Below are positions 1,727 through 34,578 of a DNA stretch of 40,000 nucleotides, piece after piece; position 1 is the stretch's first letter; the number at the start of each line of letters is the position of its first letter. This DNA comes from Pseudanabaena yagii GIHE-NHR1. Its GTDB lineage: Bacteria > Cyanobacteriota > Cyanobacteriia > Pseudanabaenales > Pseudanabaenaceae. The stretch is taken from the NCBI RefSeq assembly GCF_012863495.1, contig NZ_JAAVJL010000002.1, positions 684,271-724,270 on the forward strand. The letters run 5' to 3'. The translations under genes were made by a program, and so were the position numbers. Under the pieces are notes generated by a model, which saw only the letters and a program-made list of their open reading frames with translations, did not search any database and was not told where the DNA came from.

Positions 1727-3358
1727 ATGGCATATAAGATATCTAGCGATTGCGTTGCCTGTTCTTCTTGCATAGCTATTTGTCCTACAGGTGCAATCTC
1801 AATTCAGCAAGGCAACTATTGGATCGATCCTGCCATATGTAATAACTGTGAAGGCTATGCAAGCGAACCTCTATGCGTTAGTGTCTGTAATATCGGTGCT
1901 TCACTCCCATTACAGCCTAAAAAAGGGAGAGTCAGGACAATCGAAAATCCCCTAACGATCAGTCCGAGCCTATTTGCAAATGGTGGCAGTACTCCATTTG
2001 CCTCAGCGATCGCAATTTGGGAAGCTTGCAATTTACTTGCCCAACGTCGCGCTTTACCTTGGTCTTTAGACGATTCAGGGACTCTTGTTTATGAGAGATC
2101 TGTTAGTCAAGGCAAAGGCAAAATTGCATTGCGCTTGAATAATTTGATCAATTTTAGTTATCCGCGATCGCCCTTAGAAGCACAGACAATTCTTGCTTCT
2201 GACACCCTTGATATCCGTGCTGCCTGTATCCATCTCATCTATGCAGCCTATGCCACCACCCTAGATAAACCTTGGGAACAGGAATTTACAATTAGTGATA
2301 GTCAAATCGAAGAATATTTGGGTTTAGATAAACGCAAAGATCTTACAAAATCAACAAAGCTAAATCTAATTAAAACCATTGCAATGCAACCCTGTTGGAT
2401 TACTGCCGAAATTGATTGGCCTAAGCAAGGAAAAGTTGAAGCTTTCTCTATACCTGAAAGTCCATTATGGAATCTCTTAGAAATTGTGCATCACTTTCAA
2501 GAAGACGAAGAGGGTTGTAAACATCTAATTGGGCTGACTTTTAGAATCCAAGCAGGAATATGGTCACAATATTTTCTCAATAAAAAGGAATGCCACGTAG
2601 GAAAAGCCTTTTATCAATATAGCCACTTACCGAAGTCGCTACTAGGCGCAATCATGAGTGTCTGGCAACAGCATGAAGGTGCATCGCGAATGTTGCTTTG
2701 GTTGCTATTTAAAACTCGTATGGGAGATCAACAAAGAATTATGGTGATCACTTTAATGCGTGTTGCCTATGGCGAAGATCGCGTTAAGCTAGCGCTCTCC
2801 CAAAGAGATGAACGTAAGCGTTTATTGAGAATGTTTGAGAGTGACTTGGAGGTCGTAAATCGTTATGGACTCAAACCGATCTTCGATCCCGTCACCTATC
2901 CTGTGGAGATTCAGCCGCTATGGTCAAAACTAGAGGATATTCCTGATGATGCTGAAGCTGCCCTAGATTTCTGGATTAATGATGGTAGCTGCAATCTGCG
3001 ACTAACAGACATTGGTCCCCGTGGAAAATGGCAGATGTTAGTTAATGCTCGCATTCTATCCTTTGAGTTACTTGCTGATTGGGAACAGCCTACGGAATTG
3101 ACTCGCAAAAAGCGTAAATATGAGCGATCGCAAAGTCAGTCGAATAAACCCCAAAGATCCAGTAAAAAATCTCCACATACTCAATCTGAATTATCAGGCG
3201 AGCAAATTGCAACCCTCCGCAAAAATCTCCAAATTAGTCAGCGCACTTTAGCCGAGAAAATCGGGAAGAGTCAGAGTTGGATTCGCGATGTGGAAAATGG
3301 ACGTTTTCAAGCTAAGCAAAATGAACAACAGTTAATTCGGCAAGCTCTAGGACTATAA
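1727..3358 (+). CDS. cnfR: CnfR/PatB-type nif transcriptional activator (N-terminal ferredoxin-like Fe-S domain, C-terminal HTH)
   Basis: 543 aa. The N-terminus SSDCVACSSCIAICPTGAI...CNNCEGYASEPLCVSVCN carries CxxCxxCxxxCP plus a second Cys cluster. The C-terminus LSGEQIATLRKNLQISQRTLAEKIGKSQSWIRDVENGR is an XRE-type helix-turn-helix. This architecture, the size and the nif-linked position match PatB/CnfR. Confidence 0.8.
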   Translation: MAYKISSDCVACSSCIAICPTGAISIQQGNYWIDPAICNNCEGYASEPLCVSVCNIGASLPLQPKKGRVRTIENPLTISPSLFANGGSTPFASAIAIWEACNLLAQRRALPWSLDDSGTLVYERSVSQGKGKIALRLNNLINFSYPRSPLEAQTILASDTLDIRAACIHLIYAAYATTLDKPWEQEFTISDSQIEEYLGLDKRKDLTKSTKLNLIKTIAMQPCWITAEIDWPKQGKVEAFSIPESPLWNLLEIVHHFQEDEEGCKHLIGLTFRIQAGIWSQYFLNKKECHVGKAFYQYSHLPKSLLGAIMSVWQQHEGASRMLLWLLFKTRMGDQQRIMVITLMRVAYGEDRVKLALSQRDERKRLLRMFESDLEVVNRYGLKPIFDPVTYPVEIQPLWSKLEDIPDDAEAALDFWINDGSCNLRLTDIGPRGKWQMLVNARILSFELLADWEQPTELTRKKRKYERSQSQSNKPQRSSKKSPHTQSELSGEQIATLRKNLQISQRTLAEKIGKSQSWIRDVENGRFQAKQNEQQLIRQALGL

Positions 3359-13763: not shown

Positions 13764-13802
13764 TTTTTTACTTTTGCCTTTTTACTTTTTACTTTTTACT
13801 TC
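13764..13802. repeat. Heptamer tandem array (sense GTAAAAA x3, GGCAAAA, GTAAAAA) at the nifEN stop
   Basis: The + strand reads TTTTTTACTTTTGCCTTTTTACTTTTTACTTTTTACTTC. The array overlaps the nifEN stop codon. Confidence 0.8.
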
Positions 13803-16513
13803 TCTTCAGCTTCTAGCCAAATATTGCCAAGCTCAAAAAGTAGTTCCATCGTGCCGCGATAACCGACGATGCTGCGATGTCCATTACCCAGACGGTCTAG
13901 AATGGGGAAGCCTAAACGATAGAGCGGAATTCCTAACTTTTTAGCAACTCTCTTCCCGTTGGAGTTAGTTGCCATGAGATCGGAACCTGCGGCAAGGTGC
14001 TCAAAATCTTCAAGATCGCCAATCGTCACTTCCGCTATCGGTAACTTTTCTAATAAAGGTGATCGCGTGGTGGTGACGGCAGCTTGCAGTTCTACGCCCA
14101 TTTCTGTCAGCCACCAAGCGACGCTGTACAGCAGATCGGGTTCTAGGGCTAGAGAAACGCGCTTGCGACCGAAATAGAAGTGTGTATCTAAAATCGCATC
14201 TTGGAGTTGCTGTCTTTGATAGCGGTACTTCTCAGGTACGGCAACTCCACTCAATTGATAGAGTTGTTGCAATAGCAAGTCCGTTGCACCTAGCCCCGTG
14301 AGGCGATCGAATACTTGATAATCAGTACCAAAGCGCTCTTGCAGAATTGTCGCCGCAGTTCGCATACTTTCACCCAAGGCAAGGGTAAACACAGAACTAC
14401 CGACACTTTGAATTTGCTCTAGGGTAGTTCCGCCTGTAGTGACGGGACTATAACTCTCGCTCAAATGTCCATCCATCGAACTCGAAAGATCGGGAATGAA
14501 AATTGGCGATAGTCCAAAGGAATTGATAATCTCCTTAATCTCTTGGATATCCCCAGGGGCGAGAGCCGAACTTGCTAAGACCGTTAACTGTTGGGAATTT
14601 TTGATGCCTTCTTGGGGTAGCGATCGCACAATGCTTTCAATTACTGCTGCATAGCCATCCTGTAACGCGCCTCGAAAATCGGGAGTTGACGCAAATGGGA
14701 TTGCCAGTTTGTCAAGTTCAGGATGTTTTTGACGGAAGGTGCGGAGAATGCCTTCCATATCATCACCGCGAGTTTCCGTTAATCCTGTGGTGCAGAGTCC
14801 GATAATTTCGGGCTGAGCCTTTTCCACTAGAGTTAAAATCGCCTGTGCAATATTGTCTTCACCACCGAGAATCGTGGTAACTTCCGTCATCGCTGTGGTA
14901 GCTAGAGGAATTGCTTCGCGGAAATGGCGGACGAGTTGCACCTTGGCAAAAGCGGTACAGCCTTGGGAGCCGTGCATTAATGGCATCGCACCCTTTAGCC
15001 CCAGAAAAGCAAGGGATGCACCGAGAGGCTGACTCTGCTTGAGGGCATTGACAGCGACTGCTTTTTTCGGTGTGATGATATCGGTTTTAACTTGCTCAGC
15101 GTGACTTTCAATTAATAGAGACTTGTTAAACGCAAGGGGATCTTCCCAAGGTGCGGGTTGGCGAACCTGCTCCCAAATTGGACTATAGAGAGCTTCTTCT
15201 AATTCTCTAGCAATCTCAATCATGCCTACATAGCCAGCATAGGGATGATGACGCTCTTGGTTAATGTCGAGAAAGGGAATACGTGCTTTGAGGGCAGTGT
15301 ATTGGTTGCGCCCACCTGCGATTAACATATCGGCTTGGGTTTTGGCAATGGTTTTGAGTAATTCTTGGGCGTTCCCTTTCTCCATCATGATTCCATCTTT
15401 GCTCAGCAAGGCGCGAATCTTTGCCTTGTCTTCTTCAGTACTCTTCTTGGTGCTAGTAGCAACCACTTCCATACCCAAATCTTTCGCGGCGGAAATGATT
15501 GACCAGCTTTTGACACCACCTGTGTAGAGAACGACTTTTTTACCCTTAAGGCGATCGCGGTATGGCGCAAGTTCGCGATCGAGGTTTGCTGATTCCTCTG
15601 CGATCAGCTTTTCGACTCGATCCTGTAAGTCGCGATCGCCTAATTTTGCGGCAATATTGCGTAGACATTGATTCATGTCGGCAATCCCATAAAAAGATTC
15701 TTCGGTGTAGGGAATGCCATAGCGCTCTTCCATCTTGCGAGCGACATTGATTAATGCTTTGGAACAGATGAGAACATTCAGTTTTGCTCGGTGAGCATAA
15801 CAAACTTCTTTATAGGTGGCATCGCCTGTAATTTTCGACAATACGCGAATGCCCAATTTCTCAAATAAGGGCAGCACACTCCATAACTCACCTGCGATAT
15901 TGTATTCACCAATCAGATTGATATCGTAGGGAGTGGTATATTCGGGTTCCGTCGTGCCAATCACATATTCCAATAAAGCTTCGCCGCCCATGCGATTTCC
16001 TAAATTCTTGGTTCCAGCGAACCCGGGAGAATTAATCGGAACGATGGGAATACCTGTTCGTTCGGCGGCTTTTTGACAAACTGCTTCGAGATCGTCACCA
16101 ATCAGGGCAGTCACACAGGTGTTATACACAAACACCGCCGCAGGTTGATAACGTTGTTGAACTTCTAAAATTGCCTTGTAGAGCTTTTTCTCACCACCGA
16201 AGATAATATCGTTTTCGCTGAGGTCGGTGGTAAAGCCCATTTTATACATGGTCGAACCTGACGACAGGCTACCTCTTGCACCCCAAGAATTGCCACCACA
16301 GGCGATCGGGGCATGGACAAGATGGGCGACATCGGTAATAGGGACGAGAGCGATCGATGCACCATCAAAGGCACAGCCACCTTGCGCGGCTCCTGGTTGG
16401 GCTTGTTGTGAGCAAGCTTTATTCTTTTTCTGCCCATCTTTGTGATGATGATGATTATGCTCACAGGCAGTCTCGGACAGGAGTTCGTTGATTTTTCCTT
16501 GTGTGAGTTTCAT
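13796..16513 (-). CDS. nifEN: Fused NifE-NifN FeMo-cofactor biosynthesis scaffold (single 905-aa polypeptide)
   Basis: Residues 1-456 are NifE-like ([34 protein letters not shown]...[16 protein letters not shown]). Residues ~484-905 are NifN-like ([42 protein letters not shown]...). The two are joined by [25 protein letters not shown] (nt ~15065-15145) with no stop codon. Confidence 0.85.
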
Positions 16514-17080: not shown

Positions 17081-17932
17081 TTACTTCTGGGAAATGTTGT
17101 CTGAAAGCTGTTGTTCTAGTCGCTCGATCCGAAGGAGTAAGTTTTGTAAGACATCAGCCGATGGATCGGCTAACTGTTCCTGATTGGTTTGACCTAACGA
17201 AGTGGGCTGACTAGGACGACAAATGCGGGCAGGGACACCAACAACGGTGGTATGGCTGGGGACATCACGCAGCACGACTGAACCTGCCCCAATGCGAGCA
17301 TTATCACCAATTTGAATATTGCCGAGGACTTTAGCACCTGCACCGACGATCGTATGGTTGCCGATGGTAGGGTGACGCTTGCCAGTTTCTTTGCCTGTAC
17401 CACCAAGGGTGATACCTTGGTAGAGCAGTACATAGTCGCCGACGATCGCTGTTTCACCAATCACTACGCCCATACCGTGGTCGATAAATACCCCTTTGCC
17501 AATGCTGGCAGCAGGATGAATATCAATGCCCGTGATAAATCGCGCACAGTAGGCAAGCAACCTTGGTAGTAGGGGGATTTGGCGATGGTGTAACCAATGC
17601 GTAAAGCGATGGATCGCCAAGGCGTGCAGTCCCGGATAACAGCATAAAATCTCTAGCCAATGGTGAGCCGCAGGATCGCGATCGGCGATCGCTTGGAAAT
17701 CAGCCTTAATTACCTGTAGAACTTCGGTGACCCGTTGCCATGATTGCTGGGCAACTTGCAATTGAGTCAGGGGTAATTGCACTAATGGCAATTGCGCCAG
17801 TTGCAATTGATAAAACTGCCAGAGTGAATGTGCAGATGATTTGGTAGGGAAATCCGATGGGTATGCTGTGGCACACATGCGATCGATTTCCCGATTATCC
17901 AAAGTGTCTAGGTGAGAGATGGGTTGCATCAT
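17081..17932 (-). CDS. nifP: Nif-associated serine O-acetyltransferase (NifP/CysE)
   Basis: 283 aa: DRDPAA...YPGLHALAIHRFTHWL...GIDIHPAASIGKGVFIDHGMGVVIGETAIVGD...GGTGKETGKRHPTIGNHTIVGAGAKVLG. This is a hexapeptide-repeat SAT. Confidence 0.85.
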   Translation of the reverse strand: MMQPISHLDTLDNREIDRMCATAYPSDFPTKSSAHSLWQFYQLQLAQLPLVQLPLTQLQVAQQSWQRVTEVLQVIKADFQAIADRDPAAHHWLEILCCYPGLHALAIHRFTHWLHHRQIPLLPRLLAYCARFITGIDIHPAASIGKGVFIDHGMGVVIGETAIVGDYVLLYQGITLGGTGKETGKRHPTIGNHTIVGAGAKVLGNIQIGDNARIGAGSVVLRDVPSHTTVVGVPARICRPSQPTSLGQTNQEQLADPSADVLQNLLLRIERLEQQLSDNISQK

Positions 17933-18016
17933 TGCAGTCTCTGACAGTTAGGAGTTTGGAGTTCTGTCTTCCTGCTTATATCAGGTGCGATTAACCCAAC
18001 GGAAATAATTGTTGCG

Positions 18017-18158
18017 GATAAGATTTATTAAATTAATTAAGAAAGTACTCAGAAGCCTAAAGTCAGACTTCTAGGGAGTTTGACTTTTCTTTTGGGATAG
18101 GGGTACTAGTATTTTTGAGAGGAGGTACTAGTATTTAAGGGAATAGGGATAAGTATTT
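18017..18158 (-). promoter_or_regulatory. nifP upstream module: conserved core block plus three 22-bp-phased repeats
   Basis: In nifP sense, the core block at 18051..18017 reads TGAGTACTTTCTTAATTAATTTAATAAATCTTATC. Three AAATAC-containing units have their + strand GTATTT at 18109, 18131 and 18153. The module is a mirror copy of the nifB module. Confidence 0.55.
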
Positions 18159-18692
18159 TTATAGCCATTTCTGCCAAGTCTGTGCTTAAAGATAAAATGC
18201 TACGCGCAAGCATGGATAAGGGTTTAAGCAAAAAATATAACCAAACACAAATTGTACTCATAGGTACTCAGAAATGAGCCAATTCCTATTGAGCAAATAA
18301 GGTTTTGTATTAATAGCTACGGTTCATAACTGTACTGCACTAGCCATAAAAAATCAAGGAATAAATTTTAAATTTTTGTATTTATATCTGTATATATAGA
18401 TACGTTTAAAATCGGTTTTTACCGAAAGAAAGCAACTCCTGACAATTGTTAAAAAATTTTGATCCTTTTGCTACAGATTATCGAAGGAATGATAATTTAG
18501 ATACAAAATTAATTGCCTTAATTAAAGCTAGTAAAAACACCTAAAAGTAAGTCTATACACGACTCCTAGCCACTAATCTTATGTTTTTTGTAAGAATTGG
18601 TATCTTTTTTGAGTACATAAAAAAGTGCTTATAGTTAGCACTCAATTTTTGCTTGTATAGGTTGCTATAACTGGATTTATAGTGAGTACATG

Positions 18693-18844
18693 CAAAACTG
18701 TACCCCTTCCCTATAAATACCTAACCCCCATCATCTAAATACTCGTACCCCTACCCCAAAAGATTTTTTAAAACTGCTTAAATGTAGGCGCAGTTAGGGA
18801 TATGAATTTTGAGTACAAGCTTAATGTATTTAATAAATCTTATC
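18693..18844 (+). promoter_or_regulatory. nifB upstream module: three 22-bp-phased repeats plus conserved core block
   Basis: The three units are CAAAACTGTACCCCTTCCCTAT, AAATACCTAACCCCCATCATCT and AAATACTCGTACCCCTACCCCA (18693-18758). The core block TGAGTACAAGCTTAATGTATTTAATAAATCTTATC lies at 18810-18844, 82 nt before the nifB ATG. Confidence 0.55.
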
Positions 18845-18925
18845 GCGATCGCTTTCCTGCCGCCTTCCATAGTGACTGCTATAAATTTTGCATATTGACC
18901 GCAGTCCACTTATCAGGAAGCCTCA

Positions 18926-20419
18926 ATGACACCCCCGACACAAGCTCTCATTGCCTCCCCCGTTGAGAATAAGATTGCAACAACTCCAGCAAAATCCCAA
19001 AAATCAGGAAACTGTGGTTGTAGTAGCTCAAAAGGTTCCCAAACTTCTAACAAAAGTACTCTTAGTGAAAGTATGCAGGAGCGGATTGCGAAGCATCCCT
19101 GCTATAGCGAAGAAGCTCACCATCACTATGCTCGGATGCACGTTGCCGTAGCGCCCGCTTGTAACATTCAGTGTAACTACTGCAATCGTAAATATGACTG
19201 TGCCAACGAAAGTCGCCCTGGGGTAGTTAGTGAATTACTAACTCCCGAAGAAGCAGCTCACAAAGTAATGGTAATTGGCGGCAAAATCCCCCAAATGACC
19301 GTATTGGGAATTGCGGGGCCTGGTGACCCTTTAGCCAATCCTGAAAAGACTTTCCGAACTTTTGAGTTGATTGCAGCAGAGGCTCCCGATATTAAGCTCT
19401 GTCTTTCAACGAATGGATTGATGCTTCCCGAATATGTCGATCGCATCAAGAAGTTGAACATCGATCATGTGACGATCACGATTAATATGGTCGATCCTGA
19501 AATCGGTACTAAGATTTATCCTTGGATTCGTTATAACCGTAAGCGCTACACTGGTCTAGAAGCGTCACAGATTCTGCACCAACGCCAAATGTTGAGCTTA
19601 GATATGCTCAGAGAAGCAGACATTCTTTGCAAAGTTAATTCGGTGATGATTCCCGGAATTAACGATGAGCATCTCGTAGAAGTGGATCGAGTGATTCGTG
19701 AAAAAGGGGCTTTTCTCCACAACATTATGCCTCTAATCTCTGCTCCTGAACATGGCACACATTTCGGTTTAACTGGACAACGCGGTCCTACTCCCAAGGA
19801 GTTGAAAAAACTTCAGGATAGCTGCGCTGACAGCAACATGAAGATGATGCGCCACTGCCGTCAATGCCGTGCTGATGCCGTCGGTTTACTCGGTGAAGAT
19901 CGTTCCCAAGAATTTACCAAAGAAAAATTCATGGAAATGGCTCCCACCTATGATTTGGAAACCCGTCAAGTGGTTCACGCTGGCATCGATCTCTTACAAG
20001 CAGAATTGAAAGAGAAGAAAGCCAAAGTAACCAACATTCAAAAGACAGTGGCAACTCCCAAAATCCTTGTAGCTGTGACTACCAAAGGCAGTGGGATTGT
20101 CAATCAACACTTTGGTCATGCCAAAGAGTTCCAAATTTATGAAGTTGATGCCACAGAAGTCAAATTTGTCGGACATCGCAAGATCGATCAGTACTGTCAA
20201 AGCGGTTATGGCGAAGAAGCAACTCTCGAAGAAATTATCTCTTCCATTGCTGATTGTAAAGCCGTACTGACCGCTAAAGTTGGTAACTGTCCTCAAGAAA
20301 GCCTTTGCAAAGCAGGTATCGAGCCAGTCGAAGCCTACGATGCGATCGATACCGTAGCGAAAGAATTCTACGCTAAGTTTCTCCAAAAAGAAGCTCTTCT
20401 AGAACAAGCTCCCTATTAA
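18926..20419 (+). CDS. nifB: Radical-SAM FeMo-cofactor biosynthesis protein NifB (with C-terminal NifX-like domain)
   Basis: 497 aa: [44 protein letters not shown]. The C-terminal part [29 protein letters not shown] is NifX/NafY-like. Confidence 0.9.
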
Positions 20420-29636: not shown

Positions 29637-32600
29637 CTATGATTTGAATAGTGTTAAGTATGTTTCAAGCTTAGCAGTTTCAGCTCTATATAATTGTAGA
29701 CGGGATTCTAGAGCATCGCAAAACTCTTCAATTTCACCAAATTCATTGGTCAGTTTTACTAAAGCTGGATGCCATTGACTCTCACCTGAATCTTTTTTCT
29801 CAAGTACAGGATAAAAGTTACATAAGAAACGCAATCGGTTTTTTGGGTCTTTCTTAGCCCAATTGATATACTCGGTTTCAGGGACTCCAAATATTATACC
29901 TGCATTGTTTTGGGATTCTCCATCGAATGTATGTCGGAGGTATCCAACAAGTTCTTCCAAATAAAAAGTTTCAGATGGAGTTGCGATTTCAAAGAAATTA
30001 GATAAAGCATTCCATAGCAAAATTGGCTTGTCTTTAACTAATTCTTGAATTACACTCTGAAAATCATTATCTAACATTTGAAAAATTTTTATATCTTTAA
30101 CTTTACATAACCGTATAACTTGATTAATTAATCCAATTGCAAATTTATCATCAATTCCGTAAAACTTATGAACCAAAAGAGTTAGTTGTTTGAATGCATA
30201 CGCATGATTTATTGCTATTCTTTCTATTTTAAGAAGTTTTGGCGCAGTAACTAGTTGTTTAATTCGTTTAGCTAATTGTTTGTCAAGATTTGAGCGGTTA
30301 AGTTGGTACATAGAAATGATTTCTAGCGCCGTCCATATACCGACAGATTCTTGATTTAGATATAACTCATCAATTAAAGGCAAGATTTCTTTGACTTCAA
30401 GATTATCCAATCCCCTTCCATAGGAGAAATATACACACTCAGGTGCGTTAATACTTCCGTCTTTTAATTTCTGTACAATTTCATTTAGCCTTTCCGCAGA
30501 AATATCTATAGCATTGTATATATGCACCATTTGATTTTTCAAACGATTAGATTGCTGAGCAATTTGGATGCATTTAGTCACAATATCACTTCCTCTTTTG
30601 TCAATACCAGAAATTAATCCACTGAGAAATTGAATACCTTTATCTTCTGTAGATTTTTCAAACTCTTTGACTGCAATTTGAAATATTTTTAATGGATCTT
30701 CCACTTTTATTGCCAATTCATAGGCAAATGGATATACATTATGCAACTGTTCTTGTACCATTATTTGGATGACTTGGTTCGTAAGATCTAGATTTATAGC
30801 GATTTCAGCCGCTACTTCTTTCGCTTTTTTGGAAGAGTATTCAAAATCATCATTAGATCTATTGTTCGTATCGTAAGTTGAGTCTGGATCGTGAATATCC
30901 ATCTGCCAAAATTTTGTATATAGTAATGCTAGTTGTATTAAATCGGTTGGTAGGAGCGTATCATAAAGTTTTCTTACTCTTATCGATAAAGTTTCTGATC
31001 CCTTTTTTCTGTCGTAATATAACCAATCACCAATTCCTTTAATTGCCTCAAGCCAGATTCCTTTATCCTTGGTATTATCTTGTAAAATATTTTCAACATC
31101 TCCAATAAGGTTTTCGTAGGAGATTAAATCTCGAATATTAAAAGCAATAATTTCTTCGCATTTACAAGCAAAAACTTTATTGCTAACACGAATTTTATTT
31201 AGTCTTTGAAGACCTTCTCTAATAAAATCGAATAATTCATTCCCTGTCTCTGGTCTCCAATGTTTTAGCGGAGGTTGAGTTCCTATTTTATTAAAGTCTC
31301 TAGTCCAGCCTCGATAACTTCTTTGTATAGTATTTTGTAATGCTTCAATACAGATCTTAATGACCCTTTCATCATTAGAATTAAGCCCATCATCTAAGAT
31401 GCGGAAACGTTCTGATGGTTCGACTTCAGTTCCGCTTGAATATATTTGAAAAAGTTGTGTAAAGATGATAGTTGAGCTATTTCCCACAGGTTGCTTTTCA
31501 ACAGCAGCTAATTTTAATAGTATTCTTGCTGCAATATGAAAAGTTTTTTGGCTAAAAACAAGTTTCGCTAAAACATTTATTAGATGATCTTTTCCTGATT
31601 GTACTTGCTGAAGTTCATCTATTGATAGTTTTCCGAATATTCGCTCAATAGTATAAGCAACACTAATTGGATCAATGTGTACTAAAGCATCAAGGCATTG
31701 TAAACCAATATTTGTATTTAAACTTTCTAGCGATCTGCACAAGCCATCTCTTGCTAACAAGATCTCGGTAACTTTAGCTAATGTTTTTGAAGTGTCAAAA
31801 TACTCCCATCGCTTTAAAAAGGATGACTGTAATCTTGGTGGTGCATTCTCAATAAAATTAAGAATATTTTTTACACGCAATAGATCTAGCCTTCTTAATC
31901 CAAGAAAATTAGCTATAGGCAAAGGTTTTGCGATAAAAAAGTAGCCGTTATAGTCTACAAGAAAAGACTTTGCGGCTTGAGCTAGATATTCATACATTTC
32001 ATCCCCAGTTTGACGAGCTAAATTTTGAGCAACAAAGTCAAGTTCTTCACTTAGGGTTTCATCTGCTCCTAATTCAGTAAATAAAGCAAGACACTCAATA
32101 GCTCGAACTTGTTCTATACAAGTTATGCCGCAGCCTTTAAGGATACGTTCTTCGACATCTTCTATAGATTTTAGAATCGGTAATCCTTCTGAGTAGTTAT
32201 CAGTAGCTAGTACAGCAATACGTGGATATCCATCGCTTAGATTTTTGACAAATTCAATATCTGAGTTATCAGCTTTGGGATAGCGTTGTCGAATGATCCC
32301 TTCAATTAGAGTTTCATTGGCAGGAGTAACTGAAATATTCAAACAATCATCTTTGTCTATAGGTTGATTGTCATTGCCAATCGTTATGATTTTGAGATTG
32401 CTACTTTCTTTCTTCACTATTTCATTAAGCTTAATAGCAGTCTCACGAGGACAGTTATCTACAATGATGAGCGCTAACTTACTTGATGCTGAGAAACTTT
32501 CAACATCTGCCAAAATTTTATGACCTATTTTTTCTAAGTCGCAGTAAACTGTAGACACTGATAACGAAAGCTTTATTGTGGTTGTCTCATCCTTAAAGAC

Positions 32601-33398
32601 TTCGTATACAAATCGCGTTTTACCAAGCCCCGAAGCCCCATAAACCCTTATCGTTCTTCTAGGATCTGCTAGGTAATCCATAATTCTTTCCTTTGTTTTA
32701 TGGAAAGAAAGTGAGTCTCTTTCTTTGTTCTCTACTATTTGAAATCGATCAGCTTTGTCTTCAACTAGTGGCACTTTAGAAATATCTAATATTTCCCCCA
32801 AGCTTTCAATTGTTTCATAGCTTTTTAGCTTAAGTCCTGATTCTTGTTCATTAAGCCAAACTGCGATCGCAGGATATTGCGATACCCAAGTCGCAATTTT
32901 ATTAGCATCATAAATATCAATCCCTATTTCATCGGGATTCCCCCCAGCTTCTCGAATACCTTGGTTGATAGCCTCAATTAGTTTGGTTTTTTCTTGATCT
33001 ACAATTGGGGCAGAAGTAAAGCCGATATAAAAGCCTTTTTTAGCAATAACCGTTGTCACTGCCTCATTTAGTTCTCTTTGAGATCCTTTCTTTTGACTTT
33101 TCTTTGTCCAAACTTCTTTTTTCCATCCTGCTCTTCCTAAATTTGTAGCTTTTGACTGAAATATACAGAATCTAGAGGGTAAATAATTTGTTTCTTCGAG
33201 ATACTCTGTCCATTTAATCTCAAGTGAAAATCTGGCATCCTCACCACCATCGGGGGTAGTAATTTGAAGAGGAACTGAAACTCCTCGTAGTGGTATTCCA
33301 ATATACTGAGCCTCAGCGTGAAGTAATTTCTTGAGTAATATGACAAGGCTATTGCTATCTAACTTTTCAATTTTAGAGGGATGAACATCAAAAATCAT
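29637..33398 (-). CDS. 1253-aa Mrr-like nuclease-motif / P-loop (STAND-like) NTPase / alpha-helical repeat protein; candidate NLR/Avs-type defence sensor
   Basis: Residues 1-185: LLKKLLHAEA...ITTPDGGEDARF...CIFQSKA...GFYIGFTSAPI...IDIYDANKIATWV reads as an Mrr/PD-(D/E)xK layout (D50, E53, Q81-x-K83). Walker A is VYGASGLGKTR (aa 252-262, nt ~32616-32639) and Walker B is LALIIVDNC (aa 308-316). About 830 further residues are Leu/Ile/Glu/Lys-rich and I recognise no catalytic motif in them. The DNA is visibly more A+T-rich than the nif genes, and I find only one HIP1 site. Confidence 0.55.
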   Translation of the reverse strand: MIFDVHPSKIEKLDSNSLVILLKKLLHAEAQYIGIPLRGVSVPLQITTPDGGEDARFSLEIKWTEYLEETNYLPSRFCIFQSKATNLGRAGWKKEVWTKKSQKKGSQRELNEAVTTVIAKKGFYIGFTSAPIVDQEKTKLIEAINQGIREAGGNPDEIGIDIYDANKIATWVSQYPAIAVWLNEQESGLKLKSYETIESLGEILDISKVPLVEDKADRFQIVENKERDSLSFHKTKERIMDYLADPRRTIRVYGASGLGKTRFVYEVFKDETTTIKLSLSVSTVYCDLEKIGHKILADVESFSASSKLALIIVDNCPRETAIKLNEIVKKESSNLKIITIGNDNQPIDKDDCLNISVTPANETLIEGIIRQRYPKADNSDIEFVKNLSDGYPRIAVLATDNYSEGLPILKSIEDVEERILKGCGITCIEQVRAIECLALFTELGADETLSEELDFVAQNLARQTGDEMYEYLAQAAKSFLVDYNGYFFIAKPLPIANFLGLRRLDLLRVKNILNFIENAPPRLQSSFLKRWEYFDTSKTLAKVTEILLARDGLCRSLESLNTNIGLQCLDALVHIDPISVAYTIERIFGKLSIDELQQVQSGKDHLINVLAKLVFSQKTFHIAARILLKLAAVEKQPVGNSSTIIFTQLFQIYSSGTEVEPSERFRILDDGLNSNDERVIKICIEALQNTIQRSYRGWTRDFNKIGTQPPLKHWRPETGNELFDFIREGLQRLNKIRVSNKVFACKCEEIIAFNIRDLISYENLIGDVENILQDNTKDKGIWLEAIKGIGDWLYYDRKKGSETLSIRVRKLYDTLLPTDLIQLALLYTKFWQMDIHDPDSTYDTNNRSNDDFEYSSKKAKEVAAEIAINLDLTNQVIQIMVQEQLHNVYPFAYELAIKVEDPLKIFQIAVKEFEKSTEDKGIQFLSGLISGIDKRGSDIVTKCIQIAQQSNRLKNQMVHIYNAIDISAERLNEIVQKLKDGSINAPECVYFSYGRGLDNLEVKEILPLIDELYLNQESVGIWTALEIISMYQLNRSNLDKQLAKRIKQLVTAPKLLKIERIAINHAYAFKQLTLLVHKFYGIDDKFAIGLINQVIRLCKVKDIKIFQMLDNDFQSVIQELVKDKPILLWNALSNFFEIATPSETFYLEELVGYLRHTFDGESQNNAGIIFGVPETEYINWAKKDPKNRLRFLCNFYPVLEKKDSGESQWHPALVKLTNEFGEIEEFCDALESRLQLYRAETAKLETYLTLFKS

Positions 33399-33440: not shown

Positions 33441-34578
33441 CTAAGTACAGGGCAAAAAGTTGCAAAAGTAGGCAGGGAGGGGTTTTATAAAAGATAACCA
33501 CATCGTAAATAAAACCCCTATGAAAGAGATTAACCTATTCCGAGAAAAGTTGCAGCAACATCTGCAATGGAATAGAGCAAGACTAGCCTTTGTGTCCATG
33601 TTCTTGATCGCGCTAATGCGAGTAAAGACAGTAAACCTAGCTGAAATTGCCACAGGATTTAGTGGTTATGCCAAAGTCGAATCACACTATAAGAGGTTAC
33701 AGAGATTTTTTCGAGACTTTGAAGTGGACTATGAAAAGATCGCACTCATGGTCGTCAAAGTCATGCAAATCCCCGAACCTTGGGTAATTTCTATCGACCG
33801 CACCGATTGGGAATTCGGTAAAACCGTGTTTAATGTGCTGACATTGGGAATAGTGCATTACGGTATTGCATTCCCGTTGGTATGGATGATGCTGGACAAA
33901 AAAGGTAACTCAAACACCCGTGAGCGCTGTGAATTGTGTAATCGATTTCTGGAAATATTTGGAGACCGCAAAATCGACTTTTTGAGTGCAGACCGAGAGT
34001 TTGTCGGTGAGGATTGGTTAGATTACTTGTTGTGTGAACCATGTAACCGTTTTCGTATCCGCCGTAAAAATACTTTGCTCAATGACGGGCAGAAAAAACT
34101 GCGTGCCGACATTTGTTTTCAAGACCTCCAAGTTGGTCAGTCCAAAGTATTGTCCAAGCCCAGAAAGGTTTGGAACCATTGGCTTCGTATAGCCGCTATG
34201 CGTCTTGATGATGGCGATTTATTAATTGTCGCGACGACTCATGACCCTGATACGGCTATTGCTGACTATGCTAAGCGTTGGGCTATTGAGACTTTATTCG
34301 GGTGCTTTAAAACCCGTGGCTTTTGTTTGGAGTCCACTCATCTTCAAGATCCTGAACGTCTTTCCAAACTAATTGCTTTGCTTACTCTGGCTTTATGTTG
34401 GGCTTTTTCTTCTGGGCTTTGGTTGGCTCAACTAAATCCCCTCAAGCCTAAAAAACACGGTCGTCTTCCTAAAAGCATTTTTCGCCTTGGTTTTGATTTC
34501 CTTCGTCACATCATCTTTGACTTACATCTCAATTCTCAAGCCTTCTTTAACTCCATTAAATTTTTGTCCTGTACTTAG
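33441..34578 (+). mobile_element. IS4-family insertion sequence (1138 bp) with 21-bp imperfect terminal inverted repeats
   Basis: IRL is CTAAGTACAGGGCAAAAAGTT (33441-33461). The reverse complement of IRR (34558-34578) is CTAAGTACAGGACAAAAATTT, a 19/21 match. There is a single transposase ORF. The flanks AATGTACTCT and CGAAACCCGT show no direct repeat. Confidence 0.8.
33520..34578 (+). CDS. IS4-family DDE transposase
   Basis: 352 aa. The DDE candidates are VISIDRTDWEF, DFLSADREFVG and YAKRWAIETLFGCFK (the Y-x2-R-x3-E-x6-K signature). The stop codon is the last 3 nt of IRR. Confidence 0.8.
   Translation: MKEINLFREKLQQHLQWNRARLAFVSMFLIALMRVKTVNLAEIATGFSGYAKVESHYKRLQRFFRDFEVDYEKIALMVVKVMQIPEPWVISIDRTDWEFGKTVFNVLTLGIVHYGIAFPLVWMMLDKKGNSNTRERCELCNRFLEIFGDRKIDFLSADREFVGEDWLDYLLCEPCNRFRIRRKNTLLNDGQKKLRADICFQDLQVGQSKVLSKPRKVWNHWLRIAAMRLDDGDLLIVATTHDPDTAIADYAKRWAIETLFGCFKTRGFCLESTHLQDPERLSKLIALLTLALCWAFSSGLWLAQLNPLKPKKHGRLPKSIFRLGFDFLRHIIFDLHLNSQAFFNSIKFLSCT

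Follow-up and report, generated by a model that had tools for sequence, protein, structure and literature searches.

Two back-to-back upstream activating modules, very probably bound by CnfR, between nifP and nifB of Pseudanabaena yagii

The 993-bp intergenic region (17933–18925) between the divergent genes nifP and nifB of Pseudanabaena yagii GIHE-NHR1 was analyzed within a 40-kb window, the whole 40,000-nucleotide stretch of one contig to which all positions refer. It consists of two inverted copies of one module, each facing its own gene. These very probably act as two back-to-back activator-dependent sigma-70-type promoters, each preceded by a conserved cyanobacterial nif upstream activating module bound by the regulator CnfR. 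Read toward the gene, the module starts with octamer 1A (TGAGTACA), followed after ~72 bp by a second octamer 1B (TGAGTACA), three AAATACnnGTACCCC units phased by 22 bp, octamer 1C and an extended −10 element. The units are separated by 63–73 bp from 1C (TGAGTACA), which is joined to a TAAT..AATAAATC block, and ~30 variable bp then lead to the extended −10, TGnTATAA. An earlier reading made from the letters of this stretch (hereafter the sequence-only reading) had proposed the region as a pair of candidate CnfR-response modules. The proposal was supported, as the motifs match published cis-elements of CnfR-dependent nifB/nifP promoters and are conserved across cyanobacteria.

The mirror similarity of the two halves is real and far beyond chance. 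Two inverted repeats were found, pairing 18112–18161 with 18712–18761 (50 nt, 70%) and 18017–18054 with 18807–18844 (38 nt, 84% complementary). Local alignment of the nifB half to the reverse complement of the nifP half scored 41, compared with 12.6±1.6 (maximum 20) for block shuffles and 14 for a same-strand control. The heptamer TGAGTAC is present in eight copies in the 40 kb, six of them in the intergenic region, where ~3 would be expected per whole 40 kb. The proximal unit AAATACT(A/C)GTACCCCT, described earlier as nearly identical on the two sides, occurs once per side with 0 mismatches, and the unit AAATACTNGTACCCCT likewise has a single 0-mismatch match on each side. When up to 3 mismatches were allowed, the proximal unit gave four matches in 40 kb, three of which fell in the intergenic region (0.65 expected).

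Individual elements were located on both sides (Table 1). The three repeats 22 bp apart are present as described, with GTATTT on the plus strand at 18109, 18131 and 18153 on the nifP side and the corresponding units on the nifB side. Relative to the respective ATG, AAATAC starts at −226, −204 and −182 on the nifP side and at −211 and −189 on the nifB side, where the octamer at −243 adjoins a weaker unit; this distal unit lies 22–23 bp from the next, depending on the alignment chosen. TGAGTAC heptamers face the nearer gene at 18610, 18683 and 18810 (+) and at 18045, 18254 and 18264 (−). Several of these had been taken for extra copies. They do exist, but on the nifB side the heptamer at 18610 belongs to the canonical 1A and that at 18683 to 1B, and on the nifP side 18254 is the canonical 1A, leaving 18264 as the additional copy. 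Doubling of 1A, with two octamers 9–11 bp apart, was also seen in several taxa, including L001, L023 and L014 of the comparison set introduced below; the nifP-side doublet (18253–18270, −) reads GTACCTATGAGTAC and fits GTA-N8-TAC as well.

The mirror image is not exact. From 1B to 1C the nifB side has 127 bp and the nifP side 137 bp; from 2B to 1C the figures are 73 versus 63 bp, and from 1B to the first unit 10 versus 30 bp. The nifP-side 1B is also degenerate. Only 18181–18188 keeps the canonical 1B spacing there, and at the same place close relatives have better copies, TGGGTACA in Pseudanabaena sp. UBA1465 and TGAGTACA in Tumidithrix helvetica. The near-identity of the core blocks, which end 82 nt (nifB) and 85 nt (nifP) short of the respective ATG, stood up to the repeat analysis above (84% over 38 nt). 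Their equal distance to the two ATGs holds here but is no general rule, being confined to the Pseudanabaena/Tumidithrix lineage: other taxa have 1C 108–565 nt ahead of the nifB ATG and mostly 104–120 nt ahead of that of nifP. The symmetry centre does coincide with the midpoint between the ATGs, as had been pointed out; this merely restates the equal distances and is just as lineage-specific. Directly after the nifB-side core block lies a HIP1-type palindrome, GCGATCGC (18845–18852), which is invariant in three close relatives and has no counterpart on the nifP side.

Table 1. Features of the nifP/nifB intergenic region and associated genes (window positions)
Feature	Position	Strand	Remarks
Motif 1A, nifB side	18610–18617	+	TGAGTACA, exact
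Motif 1B, nifB side	18683–18690	+	TGAGTACA, exact; 73 bp after 1A, 127 bp before 1C
Three 22-bp units, nifB side	18692–18762	+	Distal 18692–18714 (abuts 1B), 2A 18715–18736, 2B 18737–18762 (AAATACTCGTACCCCTACCCCAAAAG)
Motif 1C and TAAT..AATAAATCTTATC block, nifB side	18810–18844	+	1C = TGAGTACA, exact; core block of the sequence-only reading
Extended −10, nifB	18877–18885	+	TGCTATAAA; predicted start ~18892 (A, 34 nt before ATG)
Motif 1A, nifP side	18253–18260	−	TGAGTACA, exact
Additional octamer next to nifP-side 1A	18263–18270	−	TGAGTACC, 10 bp upstream of 1A
Motif 1B, nifP side	18181–18188	−	Degenerate, TAAGCACA; 72 bp from 1A, 137 bp to 1C
Three 22-bp units, nifP side	18089–18158	−	2B 18089–18114, 2A 18115–18136, distal 18137–18158; inside nhmmer match 18160–17970
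Motif 1C and TAAT..AATAAATCTTATC block, nifP side	18017–18051	−	1C = TGAGTACT; inverted repeat with nifB side
Extended −10, nifP	17975–17983	−	TGATATAAG; predicted start ~17968–17969
Two nifP-sense CGTA-N8-TACA boxes	18305–18321, 18388–18404	−	Fit NtcA consensus GTA-N8-TAC exactly
Two nifB-sense TGAT-N8-TACA boxes	18460–18476, 18490–18506	+	Second also readable as extended −10 (TGATAATTT)
nifP (serine O-acetyltransferase)	17081–17932	−	TIGR01172 cysE, E=3.5e-74; first gene of leftward operon
nifB	18926–20419	+	TIGR01290, E=5e-203; first gene of rightward operon
cnfR/patB-type regulator gene	1727–3358	+	543 aa; N-terminal 2x[4Fe-4S] ferredoxin domain, C-terminal XRE-type helix-turn-helix

Conservation in other cyanobacteria, which had been set beforehand as a check, was assessed by searching the upstream regions of 80 nifB loci. 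This gave 84 distinct modules from the stretch itself and loci L001–L074; the closest nifB loci in the species-level genome collection were those of Pseudanabaena sp. UBA1465 (L001) and Tumidithrix helvetica PCC 7403 (L002). The repeats proved to be conserved. A triple TGAGTACA module was found upstream of nifB in ~60 cyanobacterial loci (1A–1B 70–75 bp, 1B–1C 114–137 bp) and, in the opposite orientation, upstream of ~20 divergent nifP genes. Overall, most of ~70 cyanobacterial loci had the module ahead of nifB. It was not found in 4 non-cyanobacterial nifB loci or in 2120 shuffled sequences. Every taxon carries three units AAATACnnG(T/n)(A/n)CCC between 1B and 1C, the last typically AAATACTnGTACCCCTACCCCAAAA, and the spacing is exactly 22 bp in 64 of 66 unit pairs. 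Unit 2B is near-identical between both sides here and to other taxa. The 1C block has the consensus TGAGTACAaac.TAATaAaTccAATAAattctAtcc in other cyanobacteria, and TGnTATAA begins 66–69 bp after the 1C start in 83 of the 84 modules (here at 1C+67/68). The ~30 bp in between (1C+35 to 1C+65) are not conserved and hold no conserved −35. Even distant cyanobacteria have kept the register of the modules, while the spacers on either side have diverged. A profile built with nhmmer from 78 modules, the source lineage excluded, had exactly two matches in the 40 kb: 18608–18892 (+, E=6e-45) and 18160–17970 (−, E=1.4e-32).

Module lengths fall into discrete classes across the 84 modules, with 1B–1C distances of 114–117, 124–129 or 136–137 bp and 2B–1C distances of 61–64 or 71–75 bp. 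These classes differ by about one helical turn (10–11 bp), which suggests a face-of-helix constraint. A CnfR multimer may accordingly be arrayed on one DNA face, as the sequence-only reading had proposed from the 22-bp spacing and as the comparative data make more plausible.

CnfR had been assigned to the gene at 1727–3358, and the protein matches that assignment. NCBIfam models identify a dicluster ferredoxin at residues 1–65 and helix-turn-helix domains at residues 483–542. Over its whole length (100%) the protein shares 56–63% identity with ~530-aa Fer4+HTH_3 proteins from Nostoc, Calothrix, Leptolyngbya, Trichodesmium and Crocosphaera. Judged by architecture and homology it is a full-length CnfR/PatB family member, though database names are generic. 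CnfR-dependent transcription or DNA binding is known for Leptolyngbya boryana, Anabaena variabilis and Nostoc PCC 7120, and a 2025 preprint reports that purified CnfR binds Nostoc fragments containing these regions (bioRxiv 10.1101/2025.04.01.646610).

By motif content and order the modules are orthologues of experimentally studied elements; the architecture has already been published, and our main finding to that extent repeats published knowledge. The nifB1, nifB2 and nifP promoters of A. variabilis each have three TGAGTACA motifs (1A/1B/1C, also CS1–3), with the A/C-rich motifs 2A and 2B between 1B and 1C (bioRxiv 10.1101/2025.04.01.646610; PMC8510180; PMC4284476). The same motifs are stated to be present in the L. 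boryana nifB-nifP region (bioRxiv 10.1101/2025.04.01.646610). The L. boryana element (Tsujimoto, Kamiya & Fujita 2016) is also the closest in layout: a ~1-kb region shared by divergent, CnfR-controlled nifB and nifP operons, with cnfR in the same cluster, the same motif set (segments I–II correspond to 1B, IV–V to 2A and VI–VII to 2B) and matching operon contents (nifBSUHDKV... and nifP..EN X W hesAB fdxHB). The present region differs from it in belonging to the genus Pseudanabaena, in the fusion of nifE and nifN (separate in the L. boryana listing), in the degenerate nifP-side 1B placed 20 bp further from the units, and in the extra octamer by the nifP-side 1A. With the A. variabilis motifs (Vernon et al. 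2017; Pratte, Vernon & Thiel, bioRxiv 10.1101/2025.04.01.646610) it shares the octamer, the order of elements and, lying between 1B and 1C, the A/C-rich pair; both have an extended −10 but no −35, and the nifP start of A. variabilis falls where we predict it for the present region. In A. variabilis, however, nifP does not lie beside nifB and the nifB leader is ~300 nt long, whereas here both leaders would be ~35 nt and the modules stand back to back.

CnfR-dependent nifB/nifP promoters have been described as possessing an extended −10 but lacking a −35 (PMC8510180). The nifP start of A. variabilis was mapped 33/34 nt before the ATG, 6–7 nt after the hexamer equivalent to that found here. Because A. 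variabilis starts fall at this distance, we predict transcription starts at ~18892 for nifB and 17968–17969 for nifP, ~47 nt past the core blocks, which would then span about −82 to −48. The predicted starts thus lie downstream of the blocks, contrary to the refuting case named in the sequence-only reading, starts upstream of the blocks or unrelated to them. Applied to Nostocales loci with 1C at −407 to −409, the rule predicts nifB starts at ~−326/−327, close to the mapped A. variabilis nifB1 start at −328 (PMC4284476). Sequences downstream of the start site have been reported as necessary for nifB2 and nifP expression. The beginning of the predicted nifB leader (TTGACCGCAGTCCAC, within 18893–18925) is similar to a conserved stretch that follows the extended −10 in other cyanobacteria (taTAtCGCCAatcaC), and the first letters of the predicted nifP leader, GCAGgaA, are conserved.

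Elements of the NifA/sigma-54 type (GG-N10-GC −24/−12; TGT-N10-ACA) had no match on either strand of 17933–18925. That proteobacterial nif system likewise places an oxygen-responsive activator upstream of nif operons with face-of-helix spacing. The promoters here differ in being of the sigma-70-type extended −10 class, with a ferredoxin-helix-turn-helix regulator and not an AAA+ enhancer-binding protein. A generic sigma-70 scan returned three promoter-like matches where 3.7 were expected, and so carries little information; none of them lay in the core block, and one, TTGCTA-17-GATAAT ending at 18496, overlaps the second nifB-sense box discussed below.

We hypothesize that, under low oxygen and nitrogen limitation, CnfR would bind each module, its Fe–S domain serving to sense low oxygen. 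Binding would most likely be centred on the helically phased 22-bp AAATACnnGTACCCC units (2A, 2B and the weaker distal unit), with contributions from the flanking TGAGTACA motifs 1A, 1B and 1C, which would modulate activity. The bound complex would then recruit or activate RNA polymerase at the extended −10 (TGnTATAA) promoter, which lacks a −35, and transcription would start ~82 bp downstream of the 1C start.

The choice of the 22-bp units as the probable CnfR contacts draws on published mutational data, because of which we treat the units as indispensable and the octamers as modulatory. In a Synechocystis reporter strain supplied with CnfR alone, changing 2A or 2B of L. boryana (segments IV–V, VI–VII) abolished CnfR activation, as summarised in a preprint (bioRxiv 10.1101/2025.04.01.646610). 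Several observations weigh against the proposed mechanism. Motif roles vary by promoter: according to the preprint, changing the L. boryana 1B (segments I–II) had little effect, while in A. variabilis loss of 1A or 1B each halves nifB1 expression and the nifP 1B is inhibitory (bioRxiv 10.1101/2025.04.01.646610). In the present region the 1B of the nifP side is degenerate in sequence and sits ~20 bp out of place. The 22-bp units could, moreover, bind a factor other than CnfR.

It is on the whole unlikely, though it deserves consideration, that CnfR in truth binds the TGAGTACA octamers and that the 22-bp A/C-rich units serve a second protein, intrinsic bending or an UP-like element. The octamer is the most sharply conserved element, with 0 mismatches in most modules, its three copies are separated by roughly whole helical turns, and the halved nifB1 expression in A. 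variabilis would fit direct binding (bioRxiv 10.1101/2025.04.01.646610). The Synechocystis experiments argue the other way: with only CnfR supplied, activation was lost on changing 2A/2B and little affected by changing 1B, as summarised in the preprint (bioRxiv 10.1101/2025.04.01.646610). So does the nifP side of the present region, where 1B is degenerate and the remaining module has been kept.

We consider it very improbable that the promoter is the 35-bp core block, with its A/T-rich part as −35/−10 and a start just downstream. The block is A/T-rich, contains TAAT/TAATAA strings and is the best conserved stretch nearest the genes. A much better extended −10 lies at the fixed distance of 66–69 bp after 1C in 83/84 modules, however, the mapped A. 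variabilis starts fall 6–7 nt after that hexamer, and the generic scan matched no sigma-70 promoter there. It is hardly credible that the symmetry has no regulatory role, whether as the neutral remnant of an inverted duplication or as part of a dispersed repeat or mobile element: the two halves are clearly homologous, but both copies are conserved in register in distant cyanobacteria while spacers diverge, the motifs are confined to the intergenic region within the 40 kb, on which ground a dispersed repeat or mobile element was rejected, and published mutational data exist (bioRxiv 10.1101/2025.04.01.646610).

The centre of the region (~18300–18510) lies upstream of both modules and is as conserved as the known motifs among the source genome, L001 and L002. 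It holds four boxes of the form [TC]G[TA][AT]-N8-TACA[AG], two in each sense. The GTA-N8-TAC of the nifP-sense boxes is invariant in these three genomes. Of 64 distinct nifB modules, 50 have a nifB-sense box ahead of 1A (~3 expected), usually at a distance of ~120 bp, and GTA-N8-TACA precedes 1A in 9 of 20 nifP modules (~1 expected). In its extended form, AAAAAA-TGnTAnnnT-nGATACAGAATTGAATTTC, the box is kept ahead of 50 of the 64 nifB modules, among loci L004–L066 (for example L007, ~2293–2360), and corresponds here to 18490–18506. The conserved box upstream of nifB in Nostoc PCC 7120 reads TGATATGTTAGATACAG.

A GC hairpin, CTGGAGTAG..CTACTCCAG, and a T-run come after the box in Nostocales and in several further orders. 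In the Nostocales hairpin G-U combinations are many and A-C ones few, the pattern that an RNA of nifB sense should show, but the box-plus-hairpin has only 6 consensus pairs with little two-sided covariation, so that a small-RNA reading has limited support. Box, hairpin and T-run together resemble either a short transcription unit or a regulated terminator. No such hairpin can be recognised upstream of 1A in the source lineage, and an Rfam search of the intergenic region and eight related loci returned nothing above noise. The spacer between 2B and 1C has a weak hairpin tendency (mean z −1.18, versus −0.40 in a control spacer), too slight for a conserved hairpin to be proposed.

The boxes could be an NtcA-type site, or the extended −10 (TGnTAnnnT) of a short upstream transcript. 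Class II NtcA promoters share with this region the GTA-N8-TAC boxes found in its centre (18307–18320, 18390–18403); within the intergenic region GTA-N8-TAC matches occur only at 18254, 18307 and 18390, all of them hundreds of bp away from either predicted start. A canonical NtcA-activated promoter, with GTA-N8-TAC at −41.5 and a −10 box ~22 bp downstream, was considered and rejected: no NtcA site lies at −41.5, and the boxes are ~400 bp from the predicted nifB and nifP starts. In Nostoc PCC 7120 a strong NtcA region (#603) from chromatin immunoprecipitation sequencing, without an assigned consensus, is listed as 'upstream far' of nifB.

Spacings throughout the module are near whole helical turns (1A–1B ~72 bp, units 22 bp, 2B–1C 63/73 bp, 1B–1C 116/127/137 bp). 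We tentatively raise the possibility, though we lean against it, that the ~290-bp module is a helically phased nucleoprotein scaffold and not a row of independent sites, with the TGAT/GTA-N8-TACA boxes ~400 bp upstream of the starts providing an NtcA-type nitrogen input or a short-transcript promoter. If so, CnfR, alone or with a partner, would wrap or loop the DNA, and an NtcA-type input could account for the additional requirement of nitrogen limitation in CnfR activation.

With these promoters, P. yagii would join the cyanobacteria whose nif genes are driven from one divergent CnfR-controlled region. Exact coordinates for all elements and the two predicted starts should be of use for annotation and for transfer of cyanobacterial nif clusters into non-fixing hosts. 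The spacing rules obtained from the 84 modules (22-bp units, helical-turn length classes, extended −10 at 1C+66–69) make the architecture of CnfR activation testable; together with the upstream boxes they are a modest addition to what has been published.

Each of the two modules faces an operon. The leftward operon comprises, in order, nifP, a 100-aa open reading frame (orf100), fused nifEN, nifX, the gene for a NifX-associated protein, nifW, hesA, hesB, fdxH and fdxB; the rightward one comprises nifB, (fdxN), nifS, nifU, nifH, nifD, nifK and nifV. The nifE and nifN sequences form a single 905-aa reading frame (13796–16513, −), which matches the bifunctional NifEN model NF011047 with 1427 bits. 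Just past the nif cluster lies an IS4-family transposase gene (33520–34578, +), adjoined by a 1253-aa reading frame (29637–33398, −).

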